Positions 21,851 through 59,677 of a stretch of 64,000 nt of DNA are shown in pieces. The stretch's first letter is position 1; every line of letters begins with the position of its first letter. Location: NCBI GenBank assembly GCA_021162805.1, contig JAGGXZ010000185.1, forward strand, positions 3,064 through 67,063. Direction: 5' to 3'. The notes under the pieces were generated by a model. It made no database searches and was not told where the DNA came from. It saw nothing but the letters and a program-made list of their open reading frames with translations. The position numbers were made by a program, and so were the translations under genes. Source of the stretch: Candidatus Poribacteria bacterium. Its GTDB lineage: Bacteria > Poribacteria > WGA-4E > B28-G17.

Positions 21851-22210
21851 ATGAGATCGATCGCTTTCTATATCCTCATGCTCTCCTCGATCCTCATGCT
21901 AACCGGATGTGGAACTAGGAAGGACTTGATCGAGGAGTATAACGACTTTGCTATTTGCGCTGCGAAGGCAGGGCTGTGGAAGGAAGCGGCCTTCAGATGG
22001 GAGAAGATCGTCCAGATGAATCCCAAAGATGCCAGAGCCCACAACAACCTTGCCGTTGCCTATGAAGCTATGGGGAAATACGATGAAGCCGAAAGGGAAT
22101 ACCGAAAAGCCCTGCAGCTCGATCCCAGAAACAAGGCTATTCAACGGAATTATATCAGATTCAAACAAATCCAGCAGAGACGTAAGGGGAGAGATGAAGG
22201 GGAAGGTTAG
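21851..22210 (+). CDS. TPR-repeat lipoprotein
   Basis: Lipobox LTGC after signal peptide; AHNNLAVAYEAMGKYDEAEREYRKALQLDP TPR units. Confidence 0.55.
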   Translation: MRSIAFYILMLSSILMLTGCGTRKDLIEEYNDFAICAAKAGLWKEAAFRWEKIVQMNPKDARAHNNLAVAYEAMGKYDEAEREYRKALQLDPRNKAIQRNYIRFKQIQQRRKGRDEGEG

Positions 22211-22889
22211 TCTCGCCGTCATACTCATCCTGATCTTAGGCTGTGGAGGCCCTGAGAAGATATGGATCAAGGTGAATACCCCCTCAAAGATCGATATAAG
22301 CCGTTACCATTCCATAGCCGTCCTGCCCCTTCTGCCCCTGAAGAAGGATGATAGAAACGGGGATCAGGGCGAATCGATCTCGTATTTCATCAGGAGGGAG
22401 ATCGCCAAGGTGAAAGGGATTAACCTGATCGATGCCCAGACCACAAGGCGGATATTGGAAGGGGAGAAGATATCAATCCAAACGCTCGAAAGCCCAGAAC
22501 AGATGGTGGATATATGTGGGGAATTGGGGGTGGACGCCGTCATAGCGGGGACATATAAGCTGTATCATGTCAGCGAACCGAGGAGATATTACGTTGAGAG
22601 GTATTCGCCTCAACTGAGGCAGTATGTGACCCAGGCGGTCACATATTATGAGAAGACCTATTATCTCAAGCTCCATCTGATGTTGATCGACTCCAAGACA
22701 GGCAAGCCGATTCTCGATGAGGAGTATGAGCCATCCTACTCTGAGGCACATAACATCGGATCGCTGATCGTCTCGGAAGTTGCTCAGGATAATCCCGCCC
22801 TGGAGAGGCTCACCCTGGATGCGATATCGCAGTTTCTCAAGAAGATAGCGCCACACTATGAGAGAGAGGAGAGGTATCTGCTGAGATGA
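22194..22889 (+). CDS. Hypothetical lipoprotein
   Basis: MKGKVSLAVILILILGCGG lipobox; internal ATG of longer ORF; stop overlaps next start (ATGA). Confidence 0.45.
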   Translation: MKGKVSLAVILILILGCGGPEKIWIKVNTPSKIDISRYHSIAVLPLLPLKKDDRNGDQGESISYFIRREIAKVKGINLIDAQTTRRILEGEKISIQTLESPEQMVDICGELGVDAVIAGTYKLYHVSEPRRYYVERYSPQLRQYVTQAVTYYEKTYYLKLHLMLIDSKTGKPILDEEYEPSYSEAHNIGSLIVSEVAQDNPALERLTLDAISQFLKKIAPHYEREERYLLR

Positions 22890-25765
22890 AACCGAGATAC
22901 ACCATAGGTATACCATTCGTTATCCTGATGATCCTGGTCGGCTTCACGCCTCTATGGGCCACTCCGCCTCTGTTACAGAATCACCTCTCCTGGGCCACAT
23001 CATCATACTCCCAGTTCTTCGGCAAGAACAAGGTGACTGAGAAGAGGTTCAAATGGATGCTCCACAAGACGGATCATTTTGACATATACTATTACCCTAC
23101 AGAGGCTGCCTTGGTGCCGGAGGTTGGGAGGATAATAGAGGAGGCGTATCAGCGGCTGAGCGATGCGCTTGATCACGAGATAGAGGGCCGCACGCCCATA
23201 ATCCTATACAAGTCCCACAATGACTTTCGACAGACGAACGTCACGCTTGCGGATCTGACGGAGGGGGTTGGTGGATTTGCGGAGATATTCAAGCACAGGG
23301 TCGTCATACCGTTTACCGGCTCGCGCAGGGAGCTGAGAGAGGTTCTATTTCACGAGCTGACGCACATATTCCAATATGACATCATCTATCACAAGCCTCT
23401 AGCGCATATCTACACCGGTGAGTTTCTCTACAGTCCGCCGCTATGGTTCATCGAGGGGATGGCAGAGTATTTCGCACAGGATATGGACTCCGTTGGGGAG
23501 ATGGTTTTAAGGAACGCCGTTGTGACGAACGAGCTCGTGCCGTTGACGAAGCTGCAGGATTTTTCAGCCTTGGGCTCACAGGTCTATCTGGGATACAAGG
23601 AGGGGCAATCTGCGCTGATGTTTCTCGCCCGGAAATACGGGGAGGATAAGATCGGCTCCATCCTTCAGGAGCTGAGACATAGCCGGACGAAGAACCTGGA
23701 TGAGGCGATGAAGAACGTGTTGGGCATATCAGAGGAGGAGTTTGATAAGGGATGGCGAAGGGAGTTGAGGAAACGATATTATCCCCTGGTGGGTGAGAGG
23801 GATATGCCGGATGTGTTTTCAAAGCAGCTGACACATTCCGATGAGGGGGGCTATCTCAAATTCGCATGGTCGCCGAGCGGGGATCTTCTGGCGTGTATCA
23901 CGACAGAAGGGGGTCATTATGATATCAGCCTCATCACCTCCACAGACGGCAGAGAGGTGATGAGACCGATCACACATCTCTACAGGAGTCAATACGAGGA
24001 GATACAGATCAGAGGCAACGGGATAGCATGGTCACCGGATGGGGATAAGCTGGCCTTTTTCGCTCGGAAGGAGGGAGGGGAGGTTCTCTTCATCTACAAC
24101 CTGATAACGAAGGATTTGAGGAAGATCTCGATGCCCTTCGATTCTTGTTGGTCGCCGGAGTGGTCTCCGGAGGGAGGGAGGATCGCTTTTGTGGGGTTGA
24201 AGGATGGGCAATCGGATATCTATCTTCTCTCGCTCAGGCGGCTTCAGGTTGGGAAGGTTAGCATCAGCAGGGTTACGCGGGATATATACGACGAGGGAGG
24301 GATCACATGGAATCCGAGAGATGAGAAGCTGGCCTATTCATCGGAGAGGGGAGGATGGCGACGGATAGTGGTGCGGGATCTGATAAGCGGCGAGGAGAGG
24401 GTATTGACGGGATGGGGATTCAACAGTATCTCTCCGAGGTGGACTCCCGACGGTAAGGGTCTTCTCTTCGTTTCAGACATGACGGGTTTCAATGACATCT
24501 ATCGTATGGAGGTCGGCAAGGGGGAGGTGGTCAGATTGGTCGGGGCTATAACGGGTTGTTTTTCCCCTGCCCTATCACCGGATGGGAAGGCTCTTGCTTA
24601 CGTGGGGTATCACGACGGCAGGCAGGATATATACAGGGTGGAAGTATCCTCGTTAACACCCGAGACGGTGAGCTTTCCGGTTGCCAAATCGGGAGGGGAG
24701 GAGAGAGAGGGGAGAGGTGAAGAGGGGATAGTCGGCAGGAGGCGGTATAGGCCGAAGCTGATGTTGGATGCGATATTCACCGACTTCACGATGTATTCGG
24801 ATGGGATATTGAGGAACACGACGCAGCTTGTAGCGAGCGATATGATGGGGAATCATCGTGTGATGCTGACGTTGATGGGACAGAGCGGGTATTTCGCTCC
24901 GGATTTCGTCGCCTACTACTATTACCTCGGGTTGAGACCGGATTTCGGGGTGGGACTGTATAATTACCACACGGTACATCTGGTGAGGGGAATATGGGGA
25001 GATGAATGGTATCTTGAACGCAATACAGGAGCAGCGGCTCTGATGAGCTATCCGTTTGACAGGTACAGGCGGTTGGAGGTTCAACTGGAGATGATCTCCA
25101 TGCCGTTCAGGTATGATTTCTGGACATCAAAGCCGCTTGATAGAGGTAATATCACCTATCTGAGTGCGTATCTGATAGGGGACACGGTGAGTTGGAGCGA
25201 GATGGGGCCGAGGGGTGGGAGCAGGTATGCGATAGGGATTGAGAGGACATTGGGGTGTCTAGGGAGTGATTTAGAAATGACCAATTACAGCTTTGATATC
25301 AGGCGCTATCAAGGTGTGGGGAGAGGTGTATTGGCGTTTCGAGGTATGGGAGCAGCTAGCGAGGGTAGGGATAATATGATATACTATCTCGGAGGTATAG
25401 ATACGCTGAGAGGTTATGGATATGAGGATTTGAGAGGATCGCGGATGATGTTGATGAATGTGGAGTTGAGGGTGCCGCTGATAGAGGAGATCCGGTTTGG
25501 GTGGCCTGTGAGTTGGAGTATAGGTGGTATAAAGGGGATAGGTTTCATGGATATGGGAGCGGCATGGTACAGGGGAGAGAGGCCGAGATTGTGGAAGATA
25601 GAGGGGAGGAAGTTGGAGCTGGTCGATTTGGCCTCGTCTGTGGGATTAGGATTGAGGATGAATTTGGGGATATTTGCATTGAATATGGATTTGGCCTGGA
25701 GGACGAATTTGGTTCATATCGGGCCCGGTCCGATCTTCCACTTCGGCCTGGGAGGAGAATTCTGA
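22886..25765 (+). CDS. Large secreted/outer-membrane tripartite protein: gluzincin-like HExxH...E domain + TolB-like PD40 beta-propeller + Omp85/surface-antigen-like C-terminal barrel
   Basis: Signal peptide; FHELTHIF...IEGMAEYF; repeated WSPDG/WSPEG/WTPDG/LSPDG PD40 motifs; C-terminal GGIDTLRGYGYEDLRGSRMMLMNVELRVPL barrel region. Confidence 0.6.
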   Translation: MKPRYTIGIPFVILMILVGFTPLWATPPLLQNHLSWATSSYSQFFGKNKVTEKRFKWMLHKTDHFDIYYYPTEAALVPEVGRIIEEAYQRLSDALDHEIEGRTPIILYKSHNDFRQTNVTLADLTEGVGGFAEIFKHRVVIPFTGSRRELREVLFHELTHIFQYDIIYHKPLAHIYTGEFLYSPPLWFIEGMAEYFAQDMDSVGEMVLRNAVVTNELVPLTKLQDFSALGSQVYLGYKEGQSALMFLARKYGEDKIGSILQELRHSRTKNLDEAMKNVLGISEEEFDKGWRRELRKRYYPLVGERDMPDVFSKQLTHSDEGGYLKFAWSPSGDLLACITTEGGHYDISLITSTDGREVMRPITHLYRSQYEEIQIRGNGIAWSPDGDKLAFFARKEGGEVLFIYNLITKDLRKISMPFDSCWSPEWSPEGGRIAFVGLKDGQSDIYLLSLRRLQVGKVSISRVTRDIYDEGGITWNPRDEKLAYSSERGGWRRIVVRDLISGEERVLTGWGFNSISPRWTPDGKGLLFVSDMTGFNDIYRMEVGKGEVVRLVGAITGCFSPALSPDGKALAYVGYHDGRQDIYRVEVSSLTPETVSFPVAKSGGEEREGRGEEGIVGRRRYRPKLMLDAIFTDFTMYSDGILRNTTQLVASDMMGNHRVMLTLMGQSGYFAPDFVAYYYYLGLRPDFGVGLYNYHTVHLVRGIWGDEWYLERNTGAAALMSYPFDRYRRLEVQLEMISMPFRYDFWTSKPLDRGNITYLSAYLIGDTVSWSEMGPRGGSRYAIGIERTLGCLGSDLEMTNYSFDIRRYQGVGRGVLAFRGMGAASEGRDNMIYYLGGIDTLRGYGYEDLRGSRMMLMNVELRVPLIEEIRFGWPVSWSIGGIKGIGFMDMGAAWYRGERPRLWKIEGRKLELVDLASSVGLGLRMNLGIFALNMDLAWRTNLVHIGPGPIFHFGLGGEF

Positions 25766-25785
25766 TCGCTCATATTTTTCGGTGA

Positions 25786-25819
25786 GTGTAGCAGAGAGCT
25801 GAATGGATAACCGCTACAC
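25786..25819. repeat. Miniature copy of intergenic repeat (GTGTAGCAGAGAGCTGAATGGATAACCGCTACAC)
   Basis: Carries both termini (GTGTAGC...GCTACAC) of the larger repeats at 40642 and 56185. Confidence 0.4.
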
Positions 25820-25844
25820 TGAGAATTTGAGTGAACCCAATTCC

Positions 25845-28814
25845 ATGGAGGAGATAAGGATGAAGGGACCTTTGAGGAAGCTTGTCGCTATCATTCTTAT
25901 ACTGATAGCGGTTTGGATACTGGGTAGGTTGATCGTATCGGTCTATCCGGAGTATCTGTGGTTCAAACATCTAAACTATGCCTCCGTCTTCACGAAGATA
26001 TTCTGGACGAAGGTGGCGATGGGGGTTACGGCGACGGTGTTGCTCTTGGGGTTAACCCTGGGCAACCTCTATCTGATATGGCGTTTCTCCAGCGCTTTGA
26101 GCCCGGCGATAATCGACGCGATGCCGTTGGGGAGGCCCGATTTCGACTTACGTAAGTACATCTTCGTCGCTTTAGGTATACTTTCGATCTTCTTCAGTCT
26201 GATCCTCGGGTATTCGACAGCGTCACATTGGGAGGTGGTTCTGAGATACTTCAATTCCGATGGGATAAAGTTCAATCTGATCGATCCGATATTTCACAAG
26301 GACGCCGGGTTTTACATCTTCAAGATGCCTTTCCTGCGATATATATATGGGTGGATCTTCGGGATCTTTCTCCTCATAACCATAGCCACAGTTGCCGTCT
26401 ATTTCTTCCACGGTCAGATCCTGGATAGGCGTAACCGGTTCGCCCCGCCTTTCAGGGTCAAAGCTCACGTCTTCACTCTGATGGCCATAACCCTTTTCAG
26501 CAGAGCATGGGGTTACAGGTTTTTGATGTATGACCTGCTCTATTCGACCAGGGGCAGGGTTTTCGGAGCGGGATATGCGGACGTGTATGCCAGAAAACCG
26601 GTGCTTTGGATATTGATGTTCCTGTGCATAGCGGCCGGATTCGTTTTTCTCATCAGCATTTTCATGCGCCGAACGAGATACGCCGTGGGATCGCTGGTGT
26701 TGATATTCATCGTCGCCTTCCTAGGCGGTATATGGCCTGCGACGGTGCAGAAGTTCAAAGTGAAACCCAATGAGCTCAATCTCGAAAGGCCGTTTATAGG
26801 ATATAACATCAAATTCACCCGATACGCATACAACCTGGATAGGATCGAGGAGAAGGAGTACCCGGTCATCGGCCGGCTCACCTACGATGTGGTCACGAGC
26901 GATAAGGCGTTTATGGAGAACGTGAGGTTGTGGGATTGGCGGCCGCTGAAGCAGATATTCAAACAGCTTCAGGTTCTCAGACCTCAATACGATTTTTCGG
27001 ATGTGGATATCGATAGATACAGGATAAACGGAAGGCTGAGACAGGTAATGCTCGCCGCCAGGGAGCTGAATTACAATCAGCTCAGGGCTGAGGCTAAGAC
27101 CTGGGTTAACCAGACCTTCACCTTCACCCACGGTTACGGCATCTGTGTCGTGCCCGTCAGCGAGATCCTAAACGGTCGTCCCCGCTTCTACGTCAAGGAC
27201 ATACCGCTGAACTATGCCCCTGAATGGCCGGAGAGGATAAAGGAGAACCCCGGTCCCAGAATATATTACGGCGAGATGACGAATCACTATGTGATCGTCA
27301 ATCCTCAAAGCGCCGAGCCGCGGGAATTCGATTATCCGATGGAGGAATCAGAAAGCTACGTCAAAAATAGCTATCAGGGCAAAGGCGGGGTTCCCTTCTC
27401 CTCCCTAATCCGTAAGCTGATATTCGCCTGGAAGTTCAAAAGCATCAACATGCTCCTTTCAGGCGAGATAAGCCGGAACAGCCGGATACTGTTCCACAGA
27501 AACATCCAGGATAGGATCTCTACGATCGCCCCGTTCTTGAGGTTCGATCAGGATCCCTACATCGTTATGGCAAACGGAAGGCTCTATTGGATAATAGACG
27601 CCTACACGGTCACGCATCGTTTCCCTTACTCTGAGCCGATGGAGGATGTGTTCAAGGAGATGGTCAGGTCGAAGTTCGGCCGCAAGACAGCGAGGAGAGT
27701 GCTGAGGACAAGAGGAGAACCATGGGGCAATTACATCCGTAATTCCGTCAAGATCGTGGTGGACGCCTATGACGGAAACGTCGATTTCTACGTGGTGGAT
27801 GAGGCGAACGATCCGATGATCCAGTGCTACATGAAGATGTTTCCCGATATGTTCAAGCCGTTTGAAAGCATGCCGCAGGAGCTCAAGGCTCACGCGAGGT
27901 ATCCGATGGCGTTATTTTTGATCCAGGCCCTCAAATACAGATCCTATCATATGACCACGCCCGACGTCTTCTATGCTCGTGAGGACCTGTGGGAGATAGG
28001 ATATGAGATATACGACAATACGGCCATCCAAGGCGAGCAACAACCCCAAGTATCGCCGCTTTCAAGACTTACCGGAGTAAGACCACAACAGACGGGTAAA
28101 AGCAACATCCAGCCGGTGGAGCCGTACTACCTCATAGTCACCCTGCCCGATGAGAAGAAAAGCGAATTCCTGATCATGATCCCCTATACGCCGGCCGGCA
28201 AAGCCAATTTGACCGCCTGGCTGGCCGCCAGATGCGACATACCGGACTACGGAAGGCTACTGGTCTATAAATTCCCAAAGGGTCAGCTCGTCAACGGCCC
28301 GATGCAGGTCGAAAGCTTTATAAGTCAGAATCCAGAGATCTCCAAGGACCTATCATTGTGGGATATGCGGGGGTCGAGGGTGTTGCGTGGAAACCTGCTG
28401 ATCATCCCTATGAGCGGCTCAGTCCTCTACGTCGAGCCGATATATATCCAGGCGGAACAATCGGAGAACGCCATACCTGAGCTCAGCCGCGTGGTCGTGG
28501 GGTATAAGCAGAGCGAGAAGATGAGCGTAGTGATGGGGATGACGCTAGAGGACGCTCTGAGAAGGATGTTCATAGGAGGAGCGATCTCAGCGGCTCCCTC
28601 CCCGGCCGGGGTGACAAAGGTCAACGCCAAACCGAAGCGGCGTCCTGCCGTCCAATCCGCAACTGCCGATCAGTTGATAAAGCTCGCAAAACAGCATTAT
28701 GATATGGCCCAACGGGCGATCAAACGAGGAGATTGGGCCGAATACGGAGATCAGATCAAAAAGCTCGGCGAGGTGCTATCACAGCTTGAGTTGATCTCAG
28801 GAGGTGGAAGATGA
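25845..28814 (+). CDS. UPF0182-family large membrane protein
   Basis: N-terminal multi-TM region with PEYLWFKHLNY motif, about 1000 aa; start set after the repeat element rather than at MDNRYT. Confidence 0.6.
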   Translation: MEEIRMKGPLRKLVAIILILIAVWILGRLIVSVYPEYLWFKHLNYASVFTKIFWTKVAMGVTATVLLLGLTLGNLYLIWRFSSALSPAIIDAMPLGRPDFDLRKYIFVALGILSIFFSLILGYSTASHWEVVLRYFNSDGIKFNLIDPIFHKDAGFYIFKMPFLRYIYGWIFGIFLLITIATVAVYFFHGQILDRRNRFAPPFRVKAHVFTLMAITLFSRAWGYRFLMYDLLYSTRGRVFGAGYADVYARKPVLWILMFLCIAAGFVFLISIFMRRTRYAVGSLVLIFIVAFLGGIWPATVQKFKVKPNELNLERPFIGYNIKFTRYAYNLDRIEEKEYPVIGRLTYDVVTSDKAFMENVRLWDWRPLKQIFKQLQVLRPQYDFSDVDIDRYRINGRLRQVMLAARELNYNQLRAEAKTWVNQTFTFTHGYGICVVPVSEILNGRPRFYVKDIPLNYAPEWPERIKENPGPRIYYGEMTNHYVIVNPQSAEPREFDYPMEESESYVKNSYQGKGGVPFSSLIRKLIFAWKFKSINMLLSGEISRNSRILFHRNIQDRISTIAPFLRFDQDPYIVMANGRLYWIIDAYTVTHRFPYSEPMEDVFKEMVRSKFGRKTARRVLRTRGEPWGNYIRNSVKIVVDAYDGNVDFYVVDEANDPMIQCYMKMFPDMFKPFESMPQELKAHARYPMALFLIQALKYRSYHMTTPDVFYAREDLWEIGYEIYDNTAIQGEQQPQVSPLSRLTGVRPQQTGKSNIQPVEPYYLIVTLPDEKKSEFLIMIPYTPAGKANLTAWLAARCDIPDYGRLLVYKFPKGQLVNGPMQVESFISQNPEISKDLSLWDMRGSRVLRGNLLIIPMSGSVLYVEPIYIQAEQSENAIPELSRVVVGYKQSEKMSVVMGMTLEDALRRMFIGGAISAAPSPAGVTKVNAKPKRRPAVQSATADQLIKLAKQHYDMAQRAIKRGDWAEYGDQIKKLGEVLSQLELISGGGR

Positions 28815-40526: not shown

Positions 40527-40641
40527 TTCAACCTACCTCCTCGCTTAAATCTCCGATATCAACATCAATTTCTATTTACGAACTTCACGTTCGACCGGTT
40601 GACCATACCTTTAGAATACGCTCATATTATCGCTAAGTTAA

Positions 40642-40870
40642 GTGTAGCAGAGATCTGAGAGGTCAGAAGTGCTTATTTCTCAGGGCAAAAAGGAACAAGG
40701 AACTAGGAGCGAGGAACGAGGATTTTCATCTCCTCGTTCCTAGTTCCTTTCTCCTCGTTCCTCCTCATGGATAACCGCTACACCCAGGGAAATAAGAGCG
40801 AATTGCTTAACTCTCACTTACGCCCTACGCAGTACGTCTCTTTCCTCTCCTTGTCACCCTGTCTCCCCTA
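40642..40870. repeat. Modular intergenic repeat copy A (GTGTAGCAGAGATCTGAGAGGTCAGAA ... imperfect hairpin GGAACTAGGAGCGAGGAACGAGGA/TCCTCGTTCCTAGTTCC ... CTCCTCGTTCCTCCTCATGGATAACCGCTACAC ... CT-rich tail GTCTCTTTCCTCTCCTTGTCACCCTGTCTCCCC)
   Basis: Blocks of 25-35 nt identical to copy at 56185..56377; lies between hsp20 3' end and htrA 5' end. Confidence 0.45.
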
Positions 40871-51294: not shown

Positions 51295-53067
51295 TTACCC
51301 TGTTTTAACCTGTACGATCGCCTCCTTAAGCTGACCGTAGTATTTGTCGTTGAATATCACGTCTGCACAGCATATATATCTCTTGGACTGTGCGCGTTCG
51401 GGGGGATCTATCGAAAAGATGGCCCTCTCAATGGAGTTAGGCTGGATATCCAGCTTGGCTTTTTCAGGGGAGCTCCTCCACCCATCGGGCAAGGACATCC
51501 TGATCTCGCAGGATGCGGGATAGGGAAAGTGATTCCGAACGGCCACCTCGAGCTCCACCCTGCCGCCCGGGCTCACCTCCGACTGATATGGATAGATACA
51601 TACCCAATCGGGATCGACACCGAACTGGGGATTTTCATACGGCAGCAGTTCATGGAGAACATCCCTGAGTCTTCTGGCCCAATTAAGGTGTTTTCTCAGA
51701 TCCTCCTCGTTCACCTCAAACGGATCCCAGTGCGATGTGAGCATCAATTGGGGGTTGAGCTCCATCATCTTCTTTGCGCTTTTGAGGAAACCCCCATCCA
51801 GCCAAAGATGATTTCGACAGCACACCTGACCTCGCATTTCACAGCCCGGCTTAGGGGTGGGGATGTTATCCCCTTCAAAAAGGGCCCTGATACCGTCGAT
51901 CTCCCCGAAGAGGCCCATCGAATAATCGGTCTGTCCGGGCATATGAAAGGCAAGCAGTTTTAGCCCCTGCCAGTCTATCACCTCCTCATCCTTTATGATC
52001 CTGTCCACAGGTATGGGATCGGGCCAGAGACAGGGCAGATTATATCTTGAGGGATTGAGGAATATATCCACCATGCTTTCGTGAAGGTATAGCTCCGCCC
52101 CGAACTCCTCCCGCAGCCTGTTTATTCCCGCCACGTGATCGTCGTGAAAATGGCTGACGATGACGAAGTCTATCTTCCTCACCCCAAACCGCTCGCGAAG
52201 GATGGAGATCTTATCGAAGTTGAAGTAGCCGCAGTCCACCATGAAAGCTCTGCCGCCCTGGGGGGAGAGGACGAAGAAAGATGTGGAGTCGTTATCCACC
52301 AGGATATGAGGTGTAACCCTCTGGAGTCCTCTTCCCGATCTGGGCTGATTGATCGATCGCCAGTCCACAATCTCATCAAGCTTCTGGAGCCTCTCGAGCA
52401 GTATGCCGATCGCTTTAGCTGGGTTGTGAATCGGTCTGCCGTGTGACGGGAGGATCAGATCGATATCCTCTTCCATAAGCCTTCGGAAGGTCTGAATGGC
52501 GCTTTTCAGCCCGACGGTGTGGCAATATTCCCATTGGAGGTCATAGAAATTGAGGATCTCGCCGGGCGAGTGAATTATATCCCCACAGAACAAGACCCTT
52601 CTCCCACCTATCTCGGCCAGGAGGGATATCGATCCCTCTGTATGGGCCGGGGTGTGAATAACCCGAAGTTGAATCCCCTCCCAATCGAAGATGTCGCCGT
52701 CGCTCAATCCTACGTCTGTGGGGAGGTTTCTGGGCAGGGTCATGAAGGTCGATCGGAGATCATAGTTGATGTATATCTGCTTGTTCTGCCAGAACTCCTC
52801 CGCCTCATCGAAGAGATGTCTTTCATACTCCGGCACGGCGATCCTGCACCCCGCCTCTTCGATCGGCTCGTCCCCCTGGCATTGATCCCTATGGTGATGG
52901 GTGTGAACGATCCATTCCAAGCGCCTGACGCCGATCCGATCCAGATGACCTAATATCCTACCGCTGCCGAAATCCACCGCCAATCCGCTTTCCCCTGATC
53001 GGATCAGATAGACGTTACAGCAATCCTCAAACATAAATAAATTGGGCAGGACCTCGGACAGGCTCAT
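51295..53067 (-). CDS. Double MBL-fold metallo-hydrolase (two HxHxDH cores) with C-terminal beta-rich domain
   Basis: IVHTHHHRDQCQG and FVIVSHFHDDHVAGINRL motifs about 280 aa apart. Confidence 0.65.
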   Translation of the reverse strand: MSLSEVLPNLFMFEDCCNVYLIRSGESGLAVDFGSGRILGHLDRIGVRRLEWIVHTHHHRDQCQGDEPIEEAGCRIAVPEYERHLFDEAEEFWQNKQIYINYDLRSTFMTLPRNLPTDVGLSDGDIFDWEGIQLRVIHTPAHTEGSISLLAEIGGRRVLFCGDIIHSPGEILNFYDLQWEYCHTVGLKSAIQTFRRLMEEDIDLILPSHGRPIHNPAKAIGILLERLQKLDEIVDWRSINQPRSGRGLQRVTPHILVDNDSTSFFVLSPQGGRAFMVDCGYFNFDKISILRERFGVRKIDFVIVSHFHDDHVAGINRLREEFGAELYLHESMVDIFLNPSRYNLPCLWPDPIPVDRIIKDEEVIDWQGLKLLAFHMPGQTDYSMGLFGEIDGIRALFEGDNIPTPKPGCEMRGQVCCRNHLWLDGGFLKSAKKMMELNPQLMLTSHWDPFEVNEEDLRKHLNWARRLRDVLHELLPYENPQFGVDPDWVCIYPYQSEVSPGGRVELEVAVRNHFPYPASCEIRMSLPDGWRSSPEKAKLDIQPNSIERAIFSIDPPERAQSKRYICCADVIFNDKYYGQLKEAIVQVKTG

Positions 53068-53540
53068 CTTGCATCACCGTCCTCCACCCATCTTCTGGCG
53101 GACTCGGCCATCTCCTCAAAGGAGGAGTAGAGGCTGGATATCCCTGTCTGCCGCCTGATCTCCTCGACAATCGGCCTCGCTTTATCCCACAGATGATGTA
53201 CGGGAATCGACCCGAACATCAGATCCTCATGTATGAGCTTATTTTTAAGTAGAATCCCCGCCGCTTCCATGACGTTGAGCAGCTTGATCATTCTGAGCTT
53301 TGAGGTGTCGTTCCTCCAAAGCGAAGCCGCATCTCGTATAAAAAGCTCCATCATGGCTTTGACCACATCCCCCTTGGACAGAAGCTCCACCACTTTCAGA
53401 TACACTCCGGCATCATCATAGGTGGGTTTAAGCCTCTGTTTTGTCAGTTCCAACATCTCTGATACTCCGGACGCGGGAGAGCTGAAAAGATATCTCAGAA
53501 TCTTTGGGGGAAATTTACCACACCACAGGCCCTTTGTCAA
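53064..53540 (-). CDS. Hypothetical protein (158 aa)
   Basis: ORF overlapping neighbours by 4 nt at its 3' end, in operon context. Confidence 0.4.
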   Translation of the reverse strand: MTKGLWCGKFPPKILRYLFSSPASGVSEMLELTKQRLKPTYDDAGVYLKVVELLSKGDVVKAMMELFIRDAASLWRNDTSKLRMIKLLNVMEAAGILLKNKLIHEDLMFGSIPVHHLWDKARPIVEEIRRQTGISSLYSSFEEMAESARRWVEDGDAR

Positions 53541-53557
53541 GTCCGGCTGAAAGCCTA

Positions 53558-54400
53558 CTAAAGACTCCCCAAATCCAGCCTCAGACCGACATGAAGTGGG
53601 ATGAAGTCCTCACCGTACTCCCTCTCGAAAGCTCTCATCGCTTCCCACCCGGTGCAATGGCCCAAGACGACCTTCCGCACCCCTATCTCCCTGAAGCGCT
53701 TCACGGTCTTGGATATCCTCTCCTGGGAAGCTCCTATCAGATGAGTCCCACCGATGACGATCGAGGGTGTTTTCCCCGTTAGCTCGGCGGTATACTCCAG
53801 GGTATTGATTATCCCCGCGTGAGCACATCCCGATATGAGGGCGGATTCGGAACCGAGATCTACGATAAGCGACTGGTCATCCGTCAGATGATCCTCACTC
53901 ATCGTAAGATCCGGCACCCTGAGCTCGAAGAACTCCTTCGAGATAGGTTCAAAATCGCATCTGCGCGGAATTTCACCTGTGAGGCTGATCCCGTCGCCGA
54001 CTTCAACGGGTTCGGTGTTCATCATCAGGAAAGCTCTGCCGAACCTCAGGATTCCAGGATGATCGGTCATACCTATGTATCTGTACTCCATCGCCCTATT
54101 TCTGGCCAGCTTTTCACCTAAAGCGTTGGGATGCAGATATATCTGCAGGGGCTGACGGCGGGGTATGGAGATCAGATATCCCAGCCCACCGGTGTGGTCA
54201 TAATGGCCATGGCTTATCGCCACCTTGTTTATCCTTGAGAGATCTATACCGAGAAGAGGGGCGTTATACCGGAGCGCCATGCCCTGTCCCGTGTCGAAGA
54301 GCAGGGGTTCGTCCCCCTCAGGTTCGATCAGAACGGAAAAACCGTGCTCGGCTATCAATCGGCCCCAGGCCGTATTTTCGGATATCACCGTTACTTTCAT
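53558..54400 (-). CDS. MBL-fold metallo-hydrolase
   Basis: VAISHGHYDHTGGL motif. Confidence 0.7.
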   Translation of the reverse strand: MKVTVISENTAWGRLIAEHGFSVLIEPEGDEPLLFDTGQGMALRYNAPLLGIDLSRINKVAISHGHYDHTGGLGYLISIPRRQPLQIYLHPNALGEKLARNRAMEYRYIGMTDHPGILRFGRAFLMMNTEPVEVGDGISLTGEIPRRCDFEPISKEFFELRVPDLTMSEDHLTDDQSLIVDLGSESALISGCAHAGIINTLEYTAELTGKTPSIVIGGTHLIGASQERISKTVKRFREIGVRKVVLGHCTGWEAMRAFEREYGEDFIPLHVGLRLDLGSL

Positions 54401-54656
54401 ATCTACCTCCTCTATCTTCTTCCTTCCCTCTGACAGTTGCGGTTTCCCTTAGGATTATATCATATTGCTCGTATTATCTACATTATATCATTTGCGCAAC
54501 GGGTAAGTATCAGCAGCGCAACTCGCCTGTCAACCGAGCCCTCAGATACCTACGTTCAAGTTTGGCATTGAAGTTGCTTATATTATGAATCGCACAGGGA
54601 GCGCGAGGGCGGGCGATGAATCGCTGAAGATTCCGCCCGCCAATTAAATCCGGGAG

Positions 54657-56117
54657 GTGATGAGGATGAAAGCCCCAGCCCTGGGTTTGCTGATCCTATT
54701 GTTAGCCGTTTCGATCTCACAGGCGGACTGGTCGATCGGTTATGAATTCAGATATGACTATGACGATGTGTATTCGAACATGATCGGCCGCGAGCACCGG
54801 GACGGCGCGGAAGTAGATGACTGGATAGAACGCGGCAGTGCAACCATAACGGCAAGTCCCATCTTCCCCGATGGCGTCAGGCTTACGGGATGGTCGACCG
54901 ATTTCGAGACGGAAGGGGAAGGAGATTTCGACTTCAGCCTCGCAAGCGCAATCTACTACTTCCACATCCCGCGTGGAACCCAATATATAAAGATCAAGGT
55001 CTACTATCGAGGTGAAGGAGGAAGGGTTGAATTCGACGGCACAGATGAGATCGCCGGAAGAGTCTGGATCAGAAACTACGAGCGGGAGAGGCTCAGGCGA
55101 AAATATGAGGAGGATGACACGCTATATGGCGATACCTTTCTCCTGAGAGCCAACAGACGATCCGAAACGATAAGGATACCGGCAGCCGAACATGTGAACG
55201 ATGGCGTGATGGAGATGCATATAGTGGTGGATGATGGGATGATGCTGGACGTAGACTATATCGTCGTCGAATCCTATAGATGGCTGCCGGAGGTTAAGGT
55301 GATCAACAGATACTACAGGGTTTATGAGTGGAAACCGTGGTATTACTACACTTACATTTACTTCTACGATGGCCCTTGCTACTATCTGACCGACTACGGA
55401 TACTACATCAGATGGATATATCCGGCGTATGACAGGTTCTACCTCAGCATCAGATTCAGATATGGAGATTACCTGCGCAGATACTACGCTATGTATCCTA
55501 GATATTACTGGTATCGTAGATGGAGCGAGATATATTACGACGATCCAAAAGCGCGGGTCAGAATTCACGCCGGAGGGGTCAGGGCTAGGATCAGACCATG
55601 GACGCCGGAGGACGAGAGGATAAGAAAGGAGTACATAATCGTCAGAAGATCCCCCGATAGGGAGAGAAACAGGATAGCTGAGGTGCGAAACAGGATAAGG
55701 GAGACGATAACGCGCTATAGAATCCGTGAAGGACAAAGCTCAGCAAGTCGCACGCGGATAAGAACCACACATCCCACCGATTCACGGTATCGGACCAGGA
55801 CATCGATCAGGTGGTCCAGAACGACTCCCAGCACCACACATATAATCGTCCCCAGAACTGAAGTTAGAATAAGAAGCCGCTCTCAGGAGAGCAGATCCTC
55901 ACCTCCTTCATCCGCCCGTACTCGAAGCTCATCGATCCGATCCCGCATATCAACACGGAGAAGCGAACCGCCCAGAAACTCTCGATCTCAGGCAAGCAGC
56001 AGCCGTAACAGGGAGGAAGAGGAAAAGAAAAAAGATGAGGACGAGGATAAAGATAAGGATAAAAAGGATGAGGGAAGCTCAAGGCGGGATAGGATCAGAT
56101 CGAGAATAAGGAGGTGA
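54657..56117 (+). CDS. Secreted protein with globular N-terminal half and extreme low-complexity C-terminal half (Tyr/Arg/Trp-rich, then Arg/Ser/Thr-rich, then Lys/Asp/Glu-rich)
   Basis: Signal peptide MMRMKAPALGLLILLLAVSISQA; RBS gggaggtga; WKPWYYYTYIYFYDGPCYYLTDYGYYIRW..., ...RSRSQESRSSPPSSARTRSSSIRSRISTRRS..., EEEEKKKDEDEDKDKDKKDE. Confidence 0.45.
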   Translation: MMRMKAPALGLLILLLAVSISQADWSIGYEFRYDYDDVYSNMIGREHRDGAEVDDWIERGSATITASPIFPDGVRLTGWSTDFETEGEGDFDFSLASAIYYFHIPRGTQYIKIKVYYRGEGGRVEFDGTDEIAGRVWIRNYERERLRRKYEEDDTLYGDTFLLRANRRSETIRIPAAEHVNDGVMEMHIVVDDGMMLDVDYIVVESYRWLPEVKVINRYYRVYEWKPWYYYTYIYFYDGPCYYLTDYGYYIRWIYPAYDRFYLSIRFRYGDYLRRYYAMYPRYYWYRRWSEIYYDDPKARVRIHAGGVRARIRPWTPEDERIRKEYIIVRRSPDRERNRIAEVRNRIRETITRYRIREGQSSASRTRIRTTHPTDSRYRTRTSIRWSRTTPSTTHIIVPRTEVRIRSRSQESRSSPPSSARTRSSSIRSRISTRRSEPPRNSRSQASSSRNREEEEKKKDEDEDKDKDKKDEGSSRRDRIRSRIRR

Positions 56118-56184
56118 AATATGACAAGGGGACGGGGAGAGGGGGAGACCAGGGGAATTCTCCCTCGCTCATAATTATCGTTAA

Positions 56185-56377
56185 GTGTAGCAGAGATCTG
56201 AGAGGTCAGAAAACGTTACAACGTTAAACGTTGAACGTGCAACGGATTCCCCTTCTCCTCGTTCCTCCTCATAGATAACCGTATACGTCTCTTTCCTCTC
56301 CTTGTCCCCTTGTCTCCTTGTCACCCTGTCTCCCCTGTTTCCTGCCTCCTGTCTCCTATCGGTGATAACCGCTACAC
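56185..56377. repeat. Modular intergenic repeat copy B (shares GTGTAGCAGAGATCTGAGAGGTCAGAA, CTCCTCGTTCCTCCTCAT-GATAACCG, GTCTCTTTCCTCTCCTTGTC..TGTCTCC and terminal GATAACCGCTACAC with copy A; unique AACGTT x4 insert)
   Basis: Direct comparison with 40642..40870; between convergent gene ends. Confidence 0.45.
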
Positions 56378-56415
56378 TCAAAGGGAATTTGAACGCAATG
56401 ATAATATGGGCGATT

Positions 56416-58599
56416 TTATCTCTTCAACCTTTCCCTCGCCACCTTCGCGTATCTGCTTTTGGGATCAAGTTTGAGGATCTCACGCCACATCTGATCCGCC
56501 TTTTCCACTTCGCCCACCGCTTCATATGCCAGAGCTAAATTATATCTGGTCAGAACTGAGGTTGGATCCAGTTTCAGCGCCTTAAGATAATAGCCTATTG
56601 CCGTTTGAGGATTGCCCATCAGATAGAAGGAGTATCCGTAGTTCATCACTATAAGCGGGTCGTTCGGCGCTATTCGGTAAGCTCGTTCTAGAAACCTATG
56701 GGCCTTCGGGAGCCTCTTCTCATCGTTGGCCAGAACCAGGAAGGCATAATCCTTGATGGCGTCAAGGTTATCCGGATCGATCGCCAATGCCTTTTCATAA
56801 AGCGGTATAGCGGCCTCAATCTTGCCCATCTCGGAATATCTGCCTGCCAGATATAACATCGCCTCGACATCCCTCGGATCGAACTTCAACGCCTTTTCGA
56901 ATTCCTCCATGGCCTTTTTGACATCTCCCTCCCGGTCGTATACCTTTCCCAGAAGTCTGTGTGCTCCGGCGTGATTCGGGTCCAACTGGATGGCCTTTTG
57001 AAGATCGGAGATGATATCCTCCATGTCGAAGATCAGCGCCGATTGAGGGCCTACGCCGAAGTTCAACATGAACCTCGCTCGCCTGTAATACAGATCGGCG
57101 TTATCGGGATAGTAATCTATCATATCCGAGTAGATCCTAAAAGCCTTCATCTTATGCTGTCTTTCAAGCAGTTCGGCCAGCTTTAAGTTATACCTGAGAT
57201 TGGAGTTGTCGATTTTGGCGGCGTTAGAGAGATGTTTGAGTGCCCTCTCGACGTTCCTTTTATACCCTTTATCATCCCCGAGCTTGTGTGCCGTCTCAGC
57301 TCGTTTTTCGTAAATCAACCCCAGTTCATATTCAAGCCCGGCGTTTTGGGGATCGAGGTTCAGGAGTTTCTCCGCCGTCTCGACGAACTTCTCCTCGTTA
57401 CCCTCTTTGCGGTATGTCTTGAGGAGCTTTTGCAAGAGCTCCATTTGAACCCCGCCTAGCTCCTCAGCTCGTTTGTATTCCAGAACCGCCTTTTGAGGGT
57501 TTTCCTTCTCATAGATCCTTCCGAGCTCGATGTGCACCTCCTTGCGCAACGGGCTGATTCCGGGGATCTTACGTGATACCTCCTCCAGCTCCCTTCGAGC
57601 GGCGAGCACATCTCCCAGTTTAACTCTCAGCTTAGCGAGTATGAACCTTACTCCCTGATCATCAGGATTTTCCCTCAGGTATCGATCGAGCACGCGAGCT
57701 GCCCTCTCATAGTCCGCTCCTTTCAGCATCGATACGAACTCCCTGTTATTCGGATCGACCGCCAAGGCGCTTCTGATAGCGGCCACGGCGTATTTCTCCT
57801 TTCCCTTCTCCATGAAGATCGATGCCAGCTCATATCTGGCATCGGCATTTTTCGGATCATATCTCCTGCCCAGCTTATACATCTTGATCGCCTCGCCGGG
57901 CTTATCCTGCATGGCATAAATCTGCCCTAGCCTGTAATAGGCGTCGGCGAGCCTGTAATTCAGCTTGATTGATCTTTCAAGCTCTATCTGGGCGTTTTTC
58001 AGATCGGCCATGTTATAAAGAACGACTCCCCTCATGTAATGGGCGACCGGAGAATTAGGCCTTTTCCCCACAAGTTCATCGCAATACCGCAGTGCTGACT
58101 CGAAATCCCTTCTATCGATATATTTCCTTATGAGATCGAGATACACCTCTTCGATATCAGAAGGTATGATCTCCTGCCAGATCGAGATGGCCTTTTGATC
58201 ATCTCCTAGGGCGGAGTAAACCTCGCCGAGGGCGAGTTTAATCCAGGGGGATTCCAAGCCTTGATTCGCCTTTTCAAGGAAATCCCGCGCTTTGCCAAGC
58301 CTGGATTTGTCGCCGCTCACCAGATAGGTTAAGCCGAGCGAATAGGCTACGACGGGGATTTCGGGATGTCTCTCATATGCTTTTTCGTATACTGCAAGCG
58401 GAACTTCGATCATGCCGTTCCTCTTGTATTTTAAGATAAGCTCTCTATGTAGCTTGAAGTTCCTCGGATCCCTGTTGACGATCTTTCTGTATTTGGATAT
58501 CTCCCTTTCCATATCTCCTCCACCGATCGTGAAGGCAAGGGAGGTCACAAGTGTTAAAATCATGATCGCTGCGGCGATCGAGATGGACCTGCGCCCCAT
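56416..58599 (-). CDS. Large TPR-repeat protein with N-terminal signal/anchor
   Basis: More than 15 TPR units; start set at ATG preceded by GGAGGAG. Confidence 0.7.
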   Translation of the reverse strand: MGRRSISIAAAIMILTLVTSLAFTIGGGDMEREISKYRKIVNRDPRNFKLHRELILKYKRNGMIEVPLAVYEKAYERHPEIPVVAYSLGLTYLVSGDKSRLGKARDFLEKANQGLESPWIKLALGEVYSALGDDQKAISIWQEIIPSDIEEVYLDLIRKYIDRRDFESALRYCDELVGKRPNSPVAHYMRGVVLYNMADLKNAQIELERSIKLNYRLADAYYRLGQIYAMQDKPGEAIKMYKLGRRYDPKNADARYELASIFMEKGKEKYAVAAIRSALAVDPNNREFVSMLKGADYERAARVLDRYLRENPDDQGVRFILAKLRVKLGDVLAARRELEEVSRKIPGISPLRKEVHIELGRIYEKENPQKAVLEYKRAEELGGVQMELLQKLLKTYRKEGNEEKFVETAEKLLNLDPQNAGLEYELGLIYEKRAETAHKLGDDKGYKRNVERALKHLSNAAKIDNSNLRYNLKLAELLERQHKMKAFRIYSDMIDYYPDNADLYYRRARFMLNFGVGPQSALIFDMEDIISDLQKAIQLDPNHAGAHRLLGKVYDREGDVKKAMEEFEKALKFDPRDVEAMLYLAGRYSEMGKIEAAIPLYEKALAIDPDNLDAIKDYAFLVLANDEKRLPKAHRFLERAYRIAPNDPLIVMNYGYSFYLMGNPQTAIGYYLKALKLDPTSVLTRYNLALAYEAVGEVEKADQMWREILKLDPKSRYAKVARERLKR

Positions 58600-58732
58600 A
58601 CTATCTCCTCCAGATGGATTGAGTTCGAAGTGATAAACGTCCCTTACCCCTCTCCAGGTTACCGTAGAGGAGGTGTGCAAAGATTTGCATACTGCGTCGT
58701 TATTCTCTAGTGAGAACATCACGGAGCTTAAA

Positions 58733-59677
58733 ATGCTTGATGAGATATATCATAGCGGAGTTACATGTATAACTTTCAGTCCTGATGGCCGTTATCTTGC
58801 CTCAGGCGCCAGTGATGGGAGCGTGAGGCTGTGGCGTGTAAATCCGAGCTCTCATTTGGAATCGCTGGAGTGTGAGAGCAGGGTGAACGCCCTCAGCTTT
58901 CATCCGGATGGCAAGCATCTGGTTGCCGGGCTGAACAACGGTGAGGTGAAGATCTGGCATCTTAACCTTAGGTATCTCACACAGGTCAGTAGCACCTCTT
59001 TCGATTCCGGACTGGGAGGAATTGGCGCCGTTGCCTTCAGCCGGGATGGGGAACTGCTGGTCGCCGGAGGGGATAACGGCAGGGTGAAAGCATGGGCCTT
59101 CCCCCGATGTGCGCCGGTAAGCGATGTGAGACTGTCCAGCGGCATGGTCTTCTCGCTGGATTTCCACCCTTCAGATTTACTGGTGGCCATCGGGGTTATG
59201 AGGATAGCTATGAATATAGATCTCGCCTCGGCATGGTTGTGGGATTTGAGTTCAGAGAGGGCAAGGCCGATTCTAGGTCATATCTCCTCCGTTTTCACCG
59301 TCAGGTTCTCCCCGCGGGGTGAAATCCTGGCGACAGGCGGAGGAGATGGGGTTGTGAGCCTCTGGAAGGTGCCGAGGCTGAGCCAATACGCCTTCTGGCA
59401 GGAGAAAAGCGAAATAGGGGCGTTGGAGTTCCTTGATGATAGATCCCTGTTGTTTGGAACTTTGAGCGGATTGCTCAAGAACCTGAGGATAACGGATCAG
59501 ATTGAAGTCGAAACGATGGGTAGATATGAGAAGGGGATCATAGCGATAAGAAGAAACCCGAACGGAAAACAGCTCGCCATCGCCTCCGGAGAGGGGTGGA
59601 TCAGGATATGGGAAAGGGAAACCATAGAGATAAAAGCGGGATCTCCCGAAGCGGAAAGGGGGTATCGCGCCATCTAG
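58733..59677 (+). CDS. WD40-repeat protein
   Basis: GVTCITFSPDGRYLASGASDGSVRLWRV and further WD repeats. Confidence 0.7.
   Translation: MLDEIYHSGVTCITFSPDGRYLASGASDGSVRLWRVNPSSHLESLECESRVNALSFHPDGKHLVAGLNNGEVKIWHLNLRYLTQVSSTSFDSGLGGIGAVAFSRDGELLVAGGDNGRVKAWAFPRCAPVSDVRLSSGMVFSLDFHPSDLLVAIGVMRIAMNIDLASAWLWDLSSERARPILGHISSVFTVRFSPRGEILATGGGDGVVSLWKVPRLSQYAFWQEKSEIGALEFLDDRSLLFGTLSGLLKNLRITDQIEVETMGRYEKGIIAIRRNPNGKQLAIASGEGWIRIWERETIEIKAGSPEAERGYRAI

Follow-up and report, generated by a model that had tools for sequence, protein, structure and literature searches.

The stretch of DNA analysed here, called the window below, covers 64,000 nucleotides of contig JAGGXZ010000185.1 (positions 3,064 to 67,063, forward strand) from a Candidatus Poribacteria bacterium (assembly GCA_021162805.1). 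An open reading frame (ORF) of 486 amino acids, counted from a GTG codon, occupies positions 54657..56117 of its forward strand and encodes a protein of most unusual composition, whose translation is exactly the one quoted in an earlier sequence-only reading of the same DNA. The most likely start of the gene is the ATG at 54666, the GTG at 54657 being the start of the maximal ORF. The product read from this ATG is 100% identical to MCD6507911.1, a 483-amino-acid record named 'hypothetical protein J7M22_14985 [Candidatus Poribacteria bacterium]'. The gene stands alone, flanked on both sides by genes of the opposite strand. Its product appears to consist of a cleavable signal peptide, an acidic head domain, a tyrosine-rich block, a short basic linker and a long polycationic tail that closes with an acidic patch and an arginine cluster (Table 1). 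We show below that this protein is almost certainly a genuine, translated member of a small family nearly confined to Candidatus Poribacteria, and we tentatively discuss its place in the cell envelope or extracellular matrix.

Table 1. Parts of the gene and its product, with the adjoining genes. Positions are those of the window; residues are counted from GTG 54657 (486-residue ORF).
Feature	Residues	Position	Strand	Remarks
Shine-Dalgarno-like GGGAGG		54652..54657	+	direct reading of the sequence; 8 nt upstream of ATG 54666
Most likely coding sequence, 483 residues plus stop		54666..56117	+	ORF list; identical protein P0001 / MCD6507911.1
Sec-type signal peptide	1-23	54657..54725	+	...SISQA followed by DW; predicted signal peptidase I cleavage after Ala23; rules applied to 117 homologs
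Acidic N-terminal domain (head)	24-214	54726..55298	+	net charge about -16; YDYD-type N-terminus, then predicted beta-sandwich / jelly roll
Tyr/Trp/Arg block	215-300	55299..55556	+	31% Tyr; core PWxxYTYxYFYDGPxYYxTDxxYYxRWxYPxYD; alignments of 21, 118 and 16 sequences
Basic linker	301-350	55557..55706	+	two AlphaFold2 helices at about residues 317-349, pLDDT about 80-90
Arg/Ser/Thr(/Ile)-rich disordered tail	351-452	55707..56012	+	net charge +21; alternating R-x-R; pLDDT <50
Acidic / polyampholyte patch EEEEKKKDEDEDKDKDKKDE-GSS	453-475	56013..56081	+	EEEEKKKDEDEDKDKDKKDE = residues 453-472
Terminal basic cluster RRDRIRSRIRR plus stop codon	476-486	56082..56117	+	strictly conserved within the clade of the window, P0001-P0005
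Antisense ORF, 204 residues		55122..55736	-	overlaps Tyr block and tail
Metallo-beta-lactamase-fold gene, upstream neighbour		53558-54400	-	
TPR gene, 768 residues, downstream neighbour		56416-58722	-	

The amino acid composition was what had drawn attention to this ORF in the sequence-only reading, which called it extraordinary and very unusual for a secreted bacterial protein. Tyrosine, arginine and tryptophan account for 31%, 14% and 6% of residues 215-300; arginine, serine, threonine and isoleucine make up 25%, 23%, 14% and 9% of residues 346-455, and a Lys/Asp/Glu block occupies residues 456-475. Of the window's 93 ORFs with 150 or more residues, this one is the top outlier on every composition measure. 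Its best stretch of 80 residues contains 34% tyrosine against 15% in the next ORF, and its best stretch of 100 residues reaches 64% arginine, serine and threonine against 43%. The description therefore stands, with a correction: what had been taken for Arg/Ser/Thr/Ile repeats is a compositional bias, as Tandem Repeats Finder detected no tandem repeat in the DNA that encodes the tail.

That the biased region is real coding sequence is established by the mode of its evolution. Alignments at the codon level, with L003 (91% amino acid identity) and L001 (81%) as the two closest loci, gave ratios of nonsynonymous to synonymous substitution rates (dN/dS) of 0.04 in both comparisons for the head, 0.03 for the tyrosine block, 0.16 (L003) and 0.12 (L001) for the helical linker, 0.09 and 0.16 for the Arg/Ser/Thr tail, and 0.015 and 0.26 for the acidic patch and basic end taken together (residues 456-486). 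Every indel in these alignments is a multiple of three and remains in frame. The same architecture, tail included, recurs in all 120 homologs inspected, and no full-length homolog lacks the tail, the acidic patch or the basic end. An identical 483-residue protein is on record from four contigs, the longest of 68,975 bp, and other contigs, of 41.8 and 42.5 kb, carry close variants from the same 90% cluster. The purifying selection in the sense frame, the in-frame indels, the absence of tandem repeats and the four identical contig copies exclude an assembly collapse or an over-extended ORF. The sequence-only reading had itself named an assembly artefact, or a shorter protein ending near 55300, as what would undo its interpretation; we attach virtually no probability to such an outcome, be it by frameshift, collapse or chance. 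Its preference for the sense frame over the antisense ORF likewise holds. The latter was rejected as a gene because selection acts on the sense frame; similar antisense ORFs do cluster in 63 loci, but this merely follows from the conservation of the sense gene, and the one in the window is only a shadow of the sense frame.

The search for relatives recovered a small family. At least 327 homologs of 476-650 residues, sharing 40-100% identity, were retrieved by a word-indexed search; all are unnamed or called 'hypothetical protein [Candidatus Poribacteria bacterium]' and none carries a Pfam domain. When each GTDB species was represented by a single genome, 150 genomes proved to carry a relative. 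The named records among the best 80 of these 150 are all Poribacteria, and each of the 79 loci shown comes from a different genome, in keeping with a single copy. The family is near-universal in Poribacteria. It is also rare, in agreement with the earlier remark on its unusual character: when 1.84 billion representatives at 50% identity were searched exhaustively with a profile of the part outside the low-complexity regions (residues 22-350, 17 sequences), only 96 clusters reached E<=1e-3. The most distant members, of 400-810 residues and in some cases labelled as Planctomycetota metagenome-assembled genomes, keep the signal peptide, the head and a P-Y-x-Y-T-Y-x-Y-Y-Y-x-G-P motif, as well as a long Pro/Arg/Ser/Thr tail, the acidic patch and an Arg-rich C-terminus. 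Membership of the family is thus based on full-length homology (E down to 0) and on a shared order of parts in alignments of 21, 118 and 16 sequences.

Known domain families contribute little to its description. Pfam and NCBIfam returned for the window protein only a sub-threshold low-complexity match to PPP4R2 (E 1.3). Even when relaxed to E<=1 to E<=10, Pfam found no domain in 21 family members, in the POR3G_00343 sequence discussed below or in four distant members, and a sequence-profile search of the PDB gave chance matches only (E>=0.03). Two kinds of envelope protein were tried and rejected: a YTV-type planctomycete wall protein, for which there is no Pfam match, and a TonB/TolA-like spacer, in which the order of domains is wrong and the TonB_C domain absent.

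The N-terminus, MRMKAPALGLLILLLAVSISQA followed by DW, has the organization of a Sec signal peptide, in which a basic n-region leads into a hydrophobic h-region and small residues occupy positions -3 and -1 of a signal peptidase I site. This organization is conserved in the family. Across 117 homologs, position -1 is alanine in 114 and position -3 is A, V, T or S in 111; the h-region has a mean Kyte-Doolittle hydropathy of at least 2.28, K or R precedes the hydrophobic core in 99% and the residue after the cleavage site is usually aspartate. The protein is therefore probably exported through Sec and signal peptidase I, and an N-in / C-out topology is predicted since an acidic stretch follows the hydrophobic region. 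The earlier description of the protein as secreted looks correct in this respect. At the other end, no signature motif of the PEP-CTERM, LPXTG, MYXO-CTERM or GlyGly-CTERM sorting signals and no hydrophobic helix were found in the last 34 residues, EEEEKKKDEDEDKDKDKKDEGSSRRDRIRSRIRR, where a basic cluster is present; a protein with a C-terminal sorting signal was thus rejected for want of the hydrophobic helix.

The head is the part for which structure prediction was most informative. A first AlphaFold2 run on the full-length protein with 21 sequences was uninformative, with a predicted local distance difference test score (pLDDT) of 42. A second run, restricted to residues 22-350 and using 118 sequences, resolved only the head and the linker helices; residues ~40-209 were modelled as a beta sandwich with a pLDDT of about 90. 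Foldseek searches of the PDB with this model placed at the top several families of carbohydrate-binding modules (CBM61, CBM27, CBM11, CBM16, CBM4 and CBM6/35) along with Eph-receptor ligand-binding domains. The CBM matches had E values from 1.3e-5 to 1e-3 and target-normalized template modelling (TM) scores of 0.38-0.58. In a viral library, the head matched receptor-binding domains of phage tail fibres. Taken together, the PDB and viral matches lead us to assign the modelled head to the galactose-binding-like or CBM-type jelly rolls. The sequence-only reading had mentioned a globular region of about 200 residues and had missed this predicted fold. The likeness to CBMs, Eph domains, MAM domains and phage tail-fibre tips extends over about 160-200 aligned columns with TM scores up to 0.59, and the conserved Trp and Arg of the family sit on strands of the model. 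The differences are equally clear: identity to the structural matches is 8-15%, no catalytic domain is attached to the head in this family, and no Pfam or NCBIfam CBM model matches, so that the head does not belong to a CBM family by sequence. Residues invariant in the 118 sequences include E58, E170, the tryptophans W56, W79 and W137 and, despite the net charge of -16, the arginines R45, R48, R59, R75, R164 and R168.

No part of the protein is better conserved than the tyrosine block that follows, which is therefore no low-complexity filler: P227, W228, Y231, Y233, F236, Y237, G239, P240, W253, Y262 and Y276 are invariant in the same 118 sequences. This invariance speaks for a motif that folds or assembles, and against a low-complexity adhesive of the mussel-glue kind. 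The linker helices correspond to model residues H296-310 and H316-328, and W315, R323 and Y326 are invariant there.

In the tail, the sequence is weakly kept across homologs, and composition, charge and end motifs are strongly kept. Over 120 homologs the tail ranges from 165 to 350 residues, with 21-38% arginine plus lysine, 20-47% serine plus threonine and a net charge of +10 to +57. Practically every homolog, distant members included, has a poly-Asp/Glu patch at the corresponding place, and this patch always precedes a basic end of 10-20 residues (...RTKRRR, ...RSRRK or ...RIRSRIRR). The basic residues are not scattered at random. In 22 diverse homologs they are enriched at spacing i,i+2 (z = +4.8; z = 2.5 for the window protein) and depleted at spacings 3-5 (z = -4.7), and RIR, RTR and RSR are the commonest tripeptides of the tail. 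The mature protein is strongly dipolar, with a charge of -16 in the head and +34 in the remainder. In some homologs of the sponge clade (P0024, P0030, P0040, P0050 and P0054), the tail is lengthened by two to three tandem units of ~37 residues (…TRNESNTTIQRQRSTQRSASDRSTRSYPSTQR…), and these duplications give proteins of about 610-650 residues as compared with about 540 in close relatives.

Several known systems resemble parts of this protein. The nearest bacterial analogue of the 'RS-like' tail is, by composition, found in the Bacillus subtilis coat proteins CotB (its SKR-B region) and CotG, whose long Ser-rich, Lys/Arg-rich disordered regions belong to an outer protective layer (PMC7821199); such regions associate with Tyr-rich components in other coat proteins. 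CotB and CotG are, however, deposited by the mother cell instead of being exported by Sec, contain true tandem repeats, which the window protein lacks, are polyphosphorylated and share no sequence homology with the family. Extracytoplasmic Ser/Thr-rich disordered regions, often C-terminal and relevant to biofilms, have also been described in streptococcal PrsA, PBP1a and LytR (PMC12041528). These are short, not polycationic and O-glycosylated, and they are carried by known enzymes or chaperones of Gram-positive bacteria, unlike the tail of the present family with its 165-350 residues and 21-38% Arg/Lys. Eukaryotic SR and FUS-like proteins are similar in composition, by their enrichment in tyrosine and arginine and by the 10 SR and 8 RS dipeptides present in the 127-residue tail of the window protein. 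They differ in that the family has no RRM or other RNA-binding domain and no homology to them, and carries a Sec signal peptide and an invariant tyrosine block; the 18 dipeptides are scattered over the 127 residues, and the signal peptide points to an extracytoplasmic location. The RNA-binding, phase-separating, adhesive, nucleic-acid-binding or mineral-binding functions suggested by the sequence-only reading thus stay analogies of composition. The individual parts resemble known kinds, namely a signal peptide for Sec export, a jelly roll of the CBM type and a disordered, Ser/Thr-rich region outside the cytoplasm. What is new is their combination: an invariant block with 30% tyrosine, a polycationic RS-like tail of 165-350 residues, an acidic patch and a terminal arginine cluster on an exported bacterial protein have no described counterpart.

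Databases list the family under 'hypothetical protein', and it has appeared once in the literature, with a wrong label. A gene region termed 'BMC-A' or 'BMC group A', after bacterial microcompartments (BMC), was described in Poribacteria from single amplified genomes (SAG) (Kamke et al. 2014, PMC3909097; Jahn et al. 2016, PMC5087111). In SAG 3G, the listed order is BMC (00346), PduL (00345), a hypothetical protein (00344), a hypothetical protein assigned to COG5422 'RhoGEF' (00343, gene 2265142948), two hypothetical proteins, Wzz/GNVR (00340), a further hypothetical protein, ExbB and two ExbD (PMC3909097 Table S2). By its position and length, the 'RhoGEF' entry, POR3G_00343 / POR4CII_00260, is the ortholog of the window protein. 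The corresponding locus L021 (SAG WGA-3G contig 3.4) shares 47% identity with it over residues 4-368 (E 2e-92), and its ORF of 1596 bp has the listed length of gene 2265142948. Both proteins have a signal peptide, head, tyrosine block and S/T/R tail, POR3G_00343 with a DDDDDD patch and a ...RTKRRR end; the window copy differs in lying outside the BMC-A synteny and in its shorter tail (about 170 residues), which has more Arg and Ile and less Ser. In sponge metatranscriptomes, the SAG-3G ortholog (gene 2265142948) was transcribed at about 883 fragments per kilobase per million (FPKM), or 1.13x the housekeeping mean (PMC5087111 supplement). The metaproteome supplement of PMC6081418 makes no mention of the protein. 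The COG5422 label, given by IMG to the SAG-3G and 4CII orthologs (PMC3909097 Table S2), was repeated in PMC5087111 and built into a model of signalling and propanediol metabolism. A signalling protein of the RhoGEF type would require a DH/RhoGEF (PF00621) domain, and none was found in the window protein, 20 further members, L021 (POR3G_00343) or four distant members; nor was a relative by sequence found in the PDB. We give this reading practically no credence. The assignment finds its best explanation in the low-complexity, S/T/R-rich tail, and the RhoGEF label, the only functional one in the literature, is an artefact that should be removed from 'BMC-A' region models.

The genomic context of the family was derived from clustered ORFs of 82 loci, mostly from Poribacteria. 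In 65-77 of these loci, the family gene belongs to a fixed array of genes on the same strand, which is the published BMC-A region. Upstream lie the genes for BMC-H (109 residues), PduL (236 residues) and a 251-residue protein with a weak match to TIGR02536 'eut_hyp'. Downstream, a DUF5683 membrane protein starts 71 bp after the family gene and is followed by a 193-residue lipoprotein. A polysaccharide co-polymerase with Wzz, GNVR and P-loop tyrosine-autokinase-like parts (Wzc-like) comes next and is present in 56 loci; after it come a 1114-residue lipoprotein terminating in ...MMGF, a CarboxypepD_reg-ExbB protein and ExbD. The gap to the BMC module measures 233 bp, as against 71 bp to the downstream envelope genes. 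A literature search on DUF5683 returned nothing relevant. The 1114-residue lipoprotein (LYGC lipobox; L002 10025-13369, +) has orthologs in 71 of the 82 loci and no Pfam or NCBIfam match; it contains an Asp-rich, thrombospondin-type-3-like stretch that looks calcium-binding, and its ...MMGF end is like that of an outer-membrane beta-barrel protein. The lone trio of BMC-H, PduL and eut_hyp-like genes is itself tightly linked, phylum-wide, to genes for the envelope and for the export of exopolysaccharide (EPS) (e.g. L002 3883-13369; L002/L013, L004-L081). None of this context is found around the window gene, and a tblastn search with seven BMC-A neighbours gave zero matches in the 64 kb.

With these elements, a possible role may be outlined. 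Our leading interpretation, held tentatively and resting on predicted features, is that of an envelope or matrix protein in which a glycan-binding head is combined with a polycationic tail tethering it to anionic polymers or membranes. After Sec export and removal of the signal peptide, the head would bind a glycan, with the cell's own exopolysaccharide, lipopolysaccharide (LPS), peptidoglycan or an environmental glycan as candidates. The invariant aromatic block would form a folded or oligomerizing core. The flexible R-x-R tail and the C-terminal arginine cluster would bind polyanions electrostatically and in a multivalent manner, be they acidic or sulfated polysaccharides, the head groups of LPS or phospholipids, or possibly extracellular DNA. 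The protein would thereby act as a non-covalent tether or cross-linker organizing a layer of the envelope or matrix, encoded in the main clade together with DUF5683, the lipoprotein, the Wzc-like autokinase, the 1114-residue lipoprotein and ExbB/ExbD, and as a stand-alone gene in the clade of the window. The neighbours in the main clade (Wzc-like co-polymerase, lipoproteins, outer-membrane-like protein and ExbBD) fit a role in the envelope or in exopolysaccharide. The weight of this neighbour evidence is limited because the link to BMC-H and PduL is equally conserved and synteny is lost in other clades.

Several points weigh against this interpretation. The mechanism is drawn from fold class, composition and clade-limited synteny. 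The likeness to CBMs is that of a generic jelly roll (8-15% identity, TM about 0.5-0.58), and jelly-roll folds also mediate protein-protein binding, as do the matching Eph ligand-binding domains. The signal peptide was judged by rules rather than by a trained predictor, and the Sec export of a tail with a net charge of +30 to +57 would be energetically unusual. AlphaFold2 gave no confident monomer model of the tyrosine block (pLDDT 40-50); a block that is invariant and yet poorly modelled has, we infer, the pattern expected of a motif folding only in an oligomer or on a partner. Synteny is missing at the window gene, at L001 and L084 of the same clade, at L085 and at the distant L082 and L083; the contexts of these five loci have no neighbours in common with the window. 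The BMC-A synteny is thus a clade feature that does not define the family, and the link to EPS and the envelope is perhaps incidental. The same block is, moreover, equally linked to the genes for BMC-H and PduL, which are cytoplasmic.

Other arrangements of the same parts have to be considered. The protein could be a structural tether of the outer membrane or spanning the periplasm, with the aromatic block in or at the outer membrane or in an oligomeric beta structure, the tail as periplasmic spacer and the arginine cluster docked on anionic phospholipid or peptidoglycan. An ortholog was indeed listed as 'outer membrane-predicted' (Jahn et al. 2016, PMC5087111). The aromatics of the invariant tyrosine block alternate around a Gly-Pro turn, the Pro/Arg/Thr-rich tails of distant homologs resemble spacers that span the periplasm or wall, the C-terminal basic cluster is very strongly constrained (dN/dS 0.015), and lipoproteins, an outer-membrane-like protein and ExbBD are the neighbours in the main clade. 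We nevertheless consider this arrangement unlikely: neither a beta-barrel nor amphipathic strands with one polar and one apolar face are predicted, YTYIYFY being aromatic or hydrophobic on both faces; AlphaFold2 offers no confident structure of the block, and both a lipobox and the C-terminal signature of outer-membrane proteins are absent. Less likely still would be an extracellular scaffold that assembles by itself or condenses through Tyr/Arg 'stickers' and head-tail charge, forming a coacervate, gel or adhesive coat on the cell surface that might be modulated by phosphorylation or O-glycosylation of Ser/Thr; it would be an extracellular analogue, in bacteria, of FUS/SR-like or mussel-foot-like proteins and of the spore-coat module CotB/CotG/CotH. 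The composition of the block (31% Tyr, 14% Arg) and of the tail (25% Arg, 37% Ser/Thr), the dipole of -16 against +34, the variation of tail length by tandem ~37-residue units in the sponge clade (P0024, P0030, P0040) and the transcription of an ortholog at housekeeping level would all suit such a scaffold. Precedents exist in the polyphosphorylation of Ser-rich basic coat proteins by CotH (PMC7821199) and in the O-glycosylation of extracytoplasmic Ser/Thr-rich disordered regions in streptococci (PMC12041528). The case is purely compositional, however, and the tyrosine block is invariant in sequence, unlike low-complexity regions of the sticker type. No kinase, glycosyltransferase or tyrosinase partner was identified, a CotH-like kinase not having been searched for, and the named analogues (FUS/SR, mussel-foot and CotB/CotG proteins) show no sequence homology to the family.

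Two further proposals are very improbable. The head could be a pro-domain from which the Arg-rich tail is cut off as antimicrobial or host-interacting peptides, in the manner of cathelicidins; such a precursor would account for a conserved head joined to a tail that varies in sequence and is always cationic, and the R-I-R-S-R-I-R-R stretch has an amphipathic beta pattern like that of membrane-active peptides. Selection on the tail is, however, purifying and not diversifying (dN/dS 0.09-0.16), the tail is very long (165-350 residues), Ser/Thr-rich and poorly hydrophobic, and no conserved processing site appears in the alignments. With an equally slight chance of being right, the N-terminal hydrophobic segment would not promote export, and a cytoplasmic protein would bind DNA, RNA, polyphosphate or a microcompartment by its tail. 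The SR/protamine-like character of the tail and the adjacency of BMC-H, PduL and eut_hyp-like genes in 65-75 of the 82 loci speak for this proposal. It has to contend with a signal peptidase I motif and an n-h-c organization conserved across 117 homologs, with the predicted N-in / C-out topology, with the wider gap to the BMC module (233 bp) than to the envelope genes (71 bp) and with the absence of an encapsulation-peptide-like helix and of RRM or HU-type domains.

The genes upstream in the window are ordinary. In the region 51295-54400 (-), a DUF4760 protein is flanked by two proteins of metallo-beta-lactamase fold (590 residues with an NPCBM_assoc domain, and 280 residues). Beyond them, further upstream, a hybrid PAS histidine kinase/response regulator is encoded along with a DinG-like helicase, and none of these genes is linked to the family gene elsewhere. 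Three contexts that are unrelated in other respects have a beta-propeller gene shortly downstream of the family gene, which may be coincidence: WD40 at 58673-59677 (+) in the window, past the TPR gene, Kelch in L001 (7597-8625) and WD40-like in L083 (9696-10595). The convergent intergenic region that follows the gene (56118-56415) contains a long imperfect hairpin, in which a GA-rich arm (56122-56156) pairs with a CT-rich arm (56295-56335) built of ~8-nt CTTGTCNC units. Its loop carries AACGTT palindromes, its RNA fold has an energy of -103 kcal/mol (z = -4.9), and an Rfam scan of 54300-56500 gave nothing meaningful, the hairpin included. Because segments of this hairpin recur at two other intergenic sites (40619-40668, 40746-40777 and 40849-40863; 25753-25802), it looks like a dispersed element of this genome akin to miniature inverted-repeat transposable elements (MITE) or repetitive extragenic palindromes (REP). 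Elsewhere in the window, a strongly G-skewed stretch (22029-28814, +; GC skew 0.3-0.4 at 24-26 kb) contains three ORFs, encoding a lipoprotein-like protein of 286 residues and proteins of 959 and 1003 residues, the last with several hydrophobic segments; judged by sequence alone, these seem to be ordinary proteins of the envelope or membrane.

Among the uncultivated symbionts of sponges, Poribacteria count as some of the most abundant and, to our knowledge, almost nothing is known of their cell surface. A family that is near-universal in the phylum, probably exported and represented by an ortholog transcribed at housekeeping level is therefore a good candidate for a major component of their envelope or matrix. 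A bolder conjecture, which we regard as improbable, would see in this protein a phylum-wide, highly expressed scaffold assembling by itself, through Tyr/Arg 'stickers' and head-tail charge, on or around the cell as a polyelectrolyte coat or condensate with anionic glycans, a secreted bacterial counterpart of eukaryotic RS/FUS-like or mussel adhesive proteins possibly modified on Ser/Thr or Tyr; if true, it could account for envelope features of Poribacteria and for their membrane-associated, ring-shaped signals, both of which have been reported. Irrespective of its exact role, the family is one of the few clear instances in which a probably extracytoplasmic protein of bacteria carries a long, disordered, polycationic region of RS-like type, with composition, charge pattern and terminal motifs maintained by purifying selection, and it is in this respect relevant to the study of bacterial disordered regions, envelope tethering and extracellular condensates.

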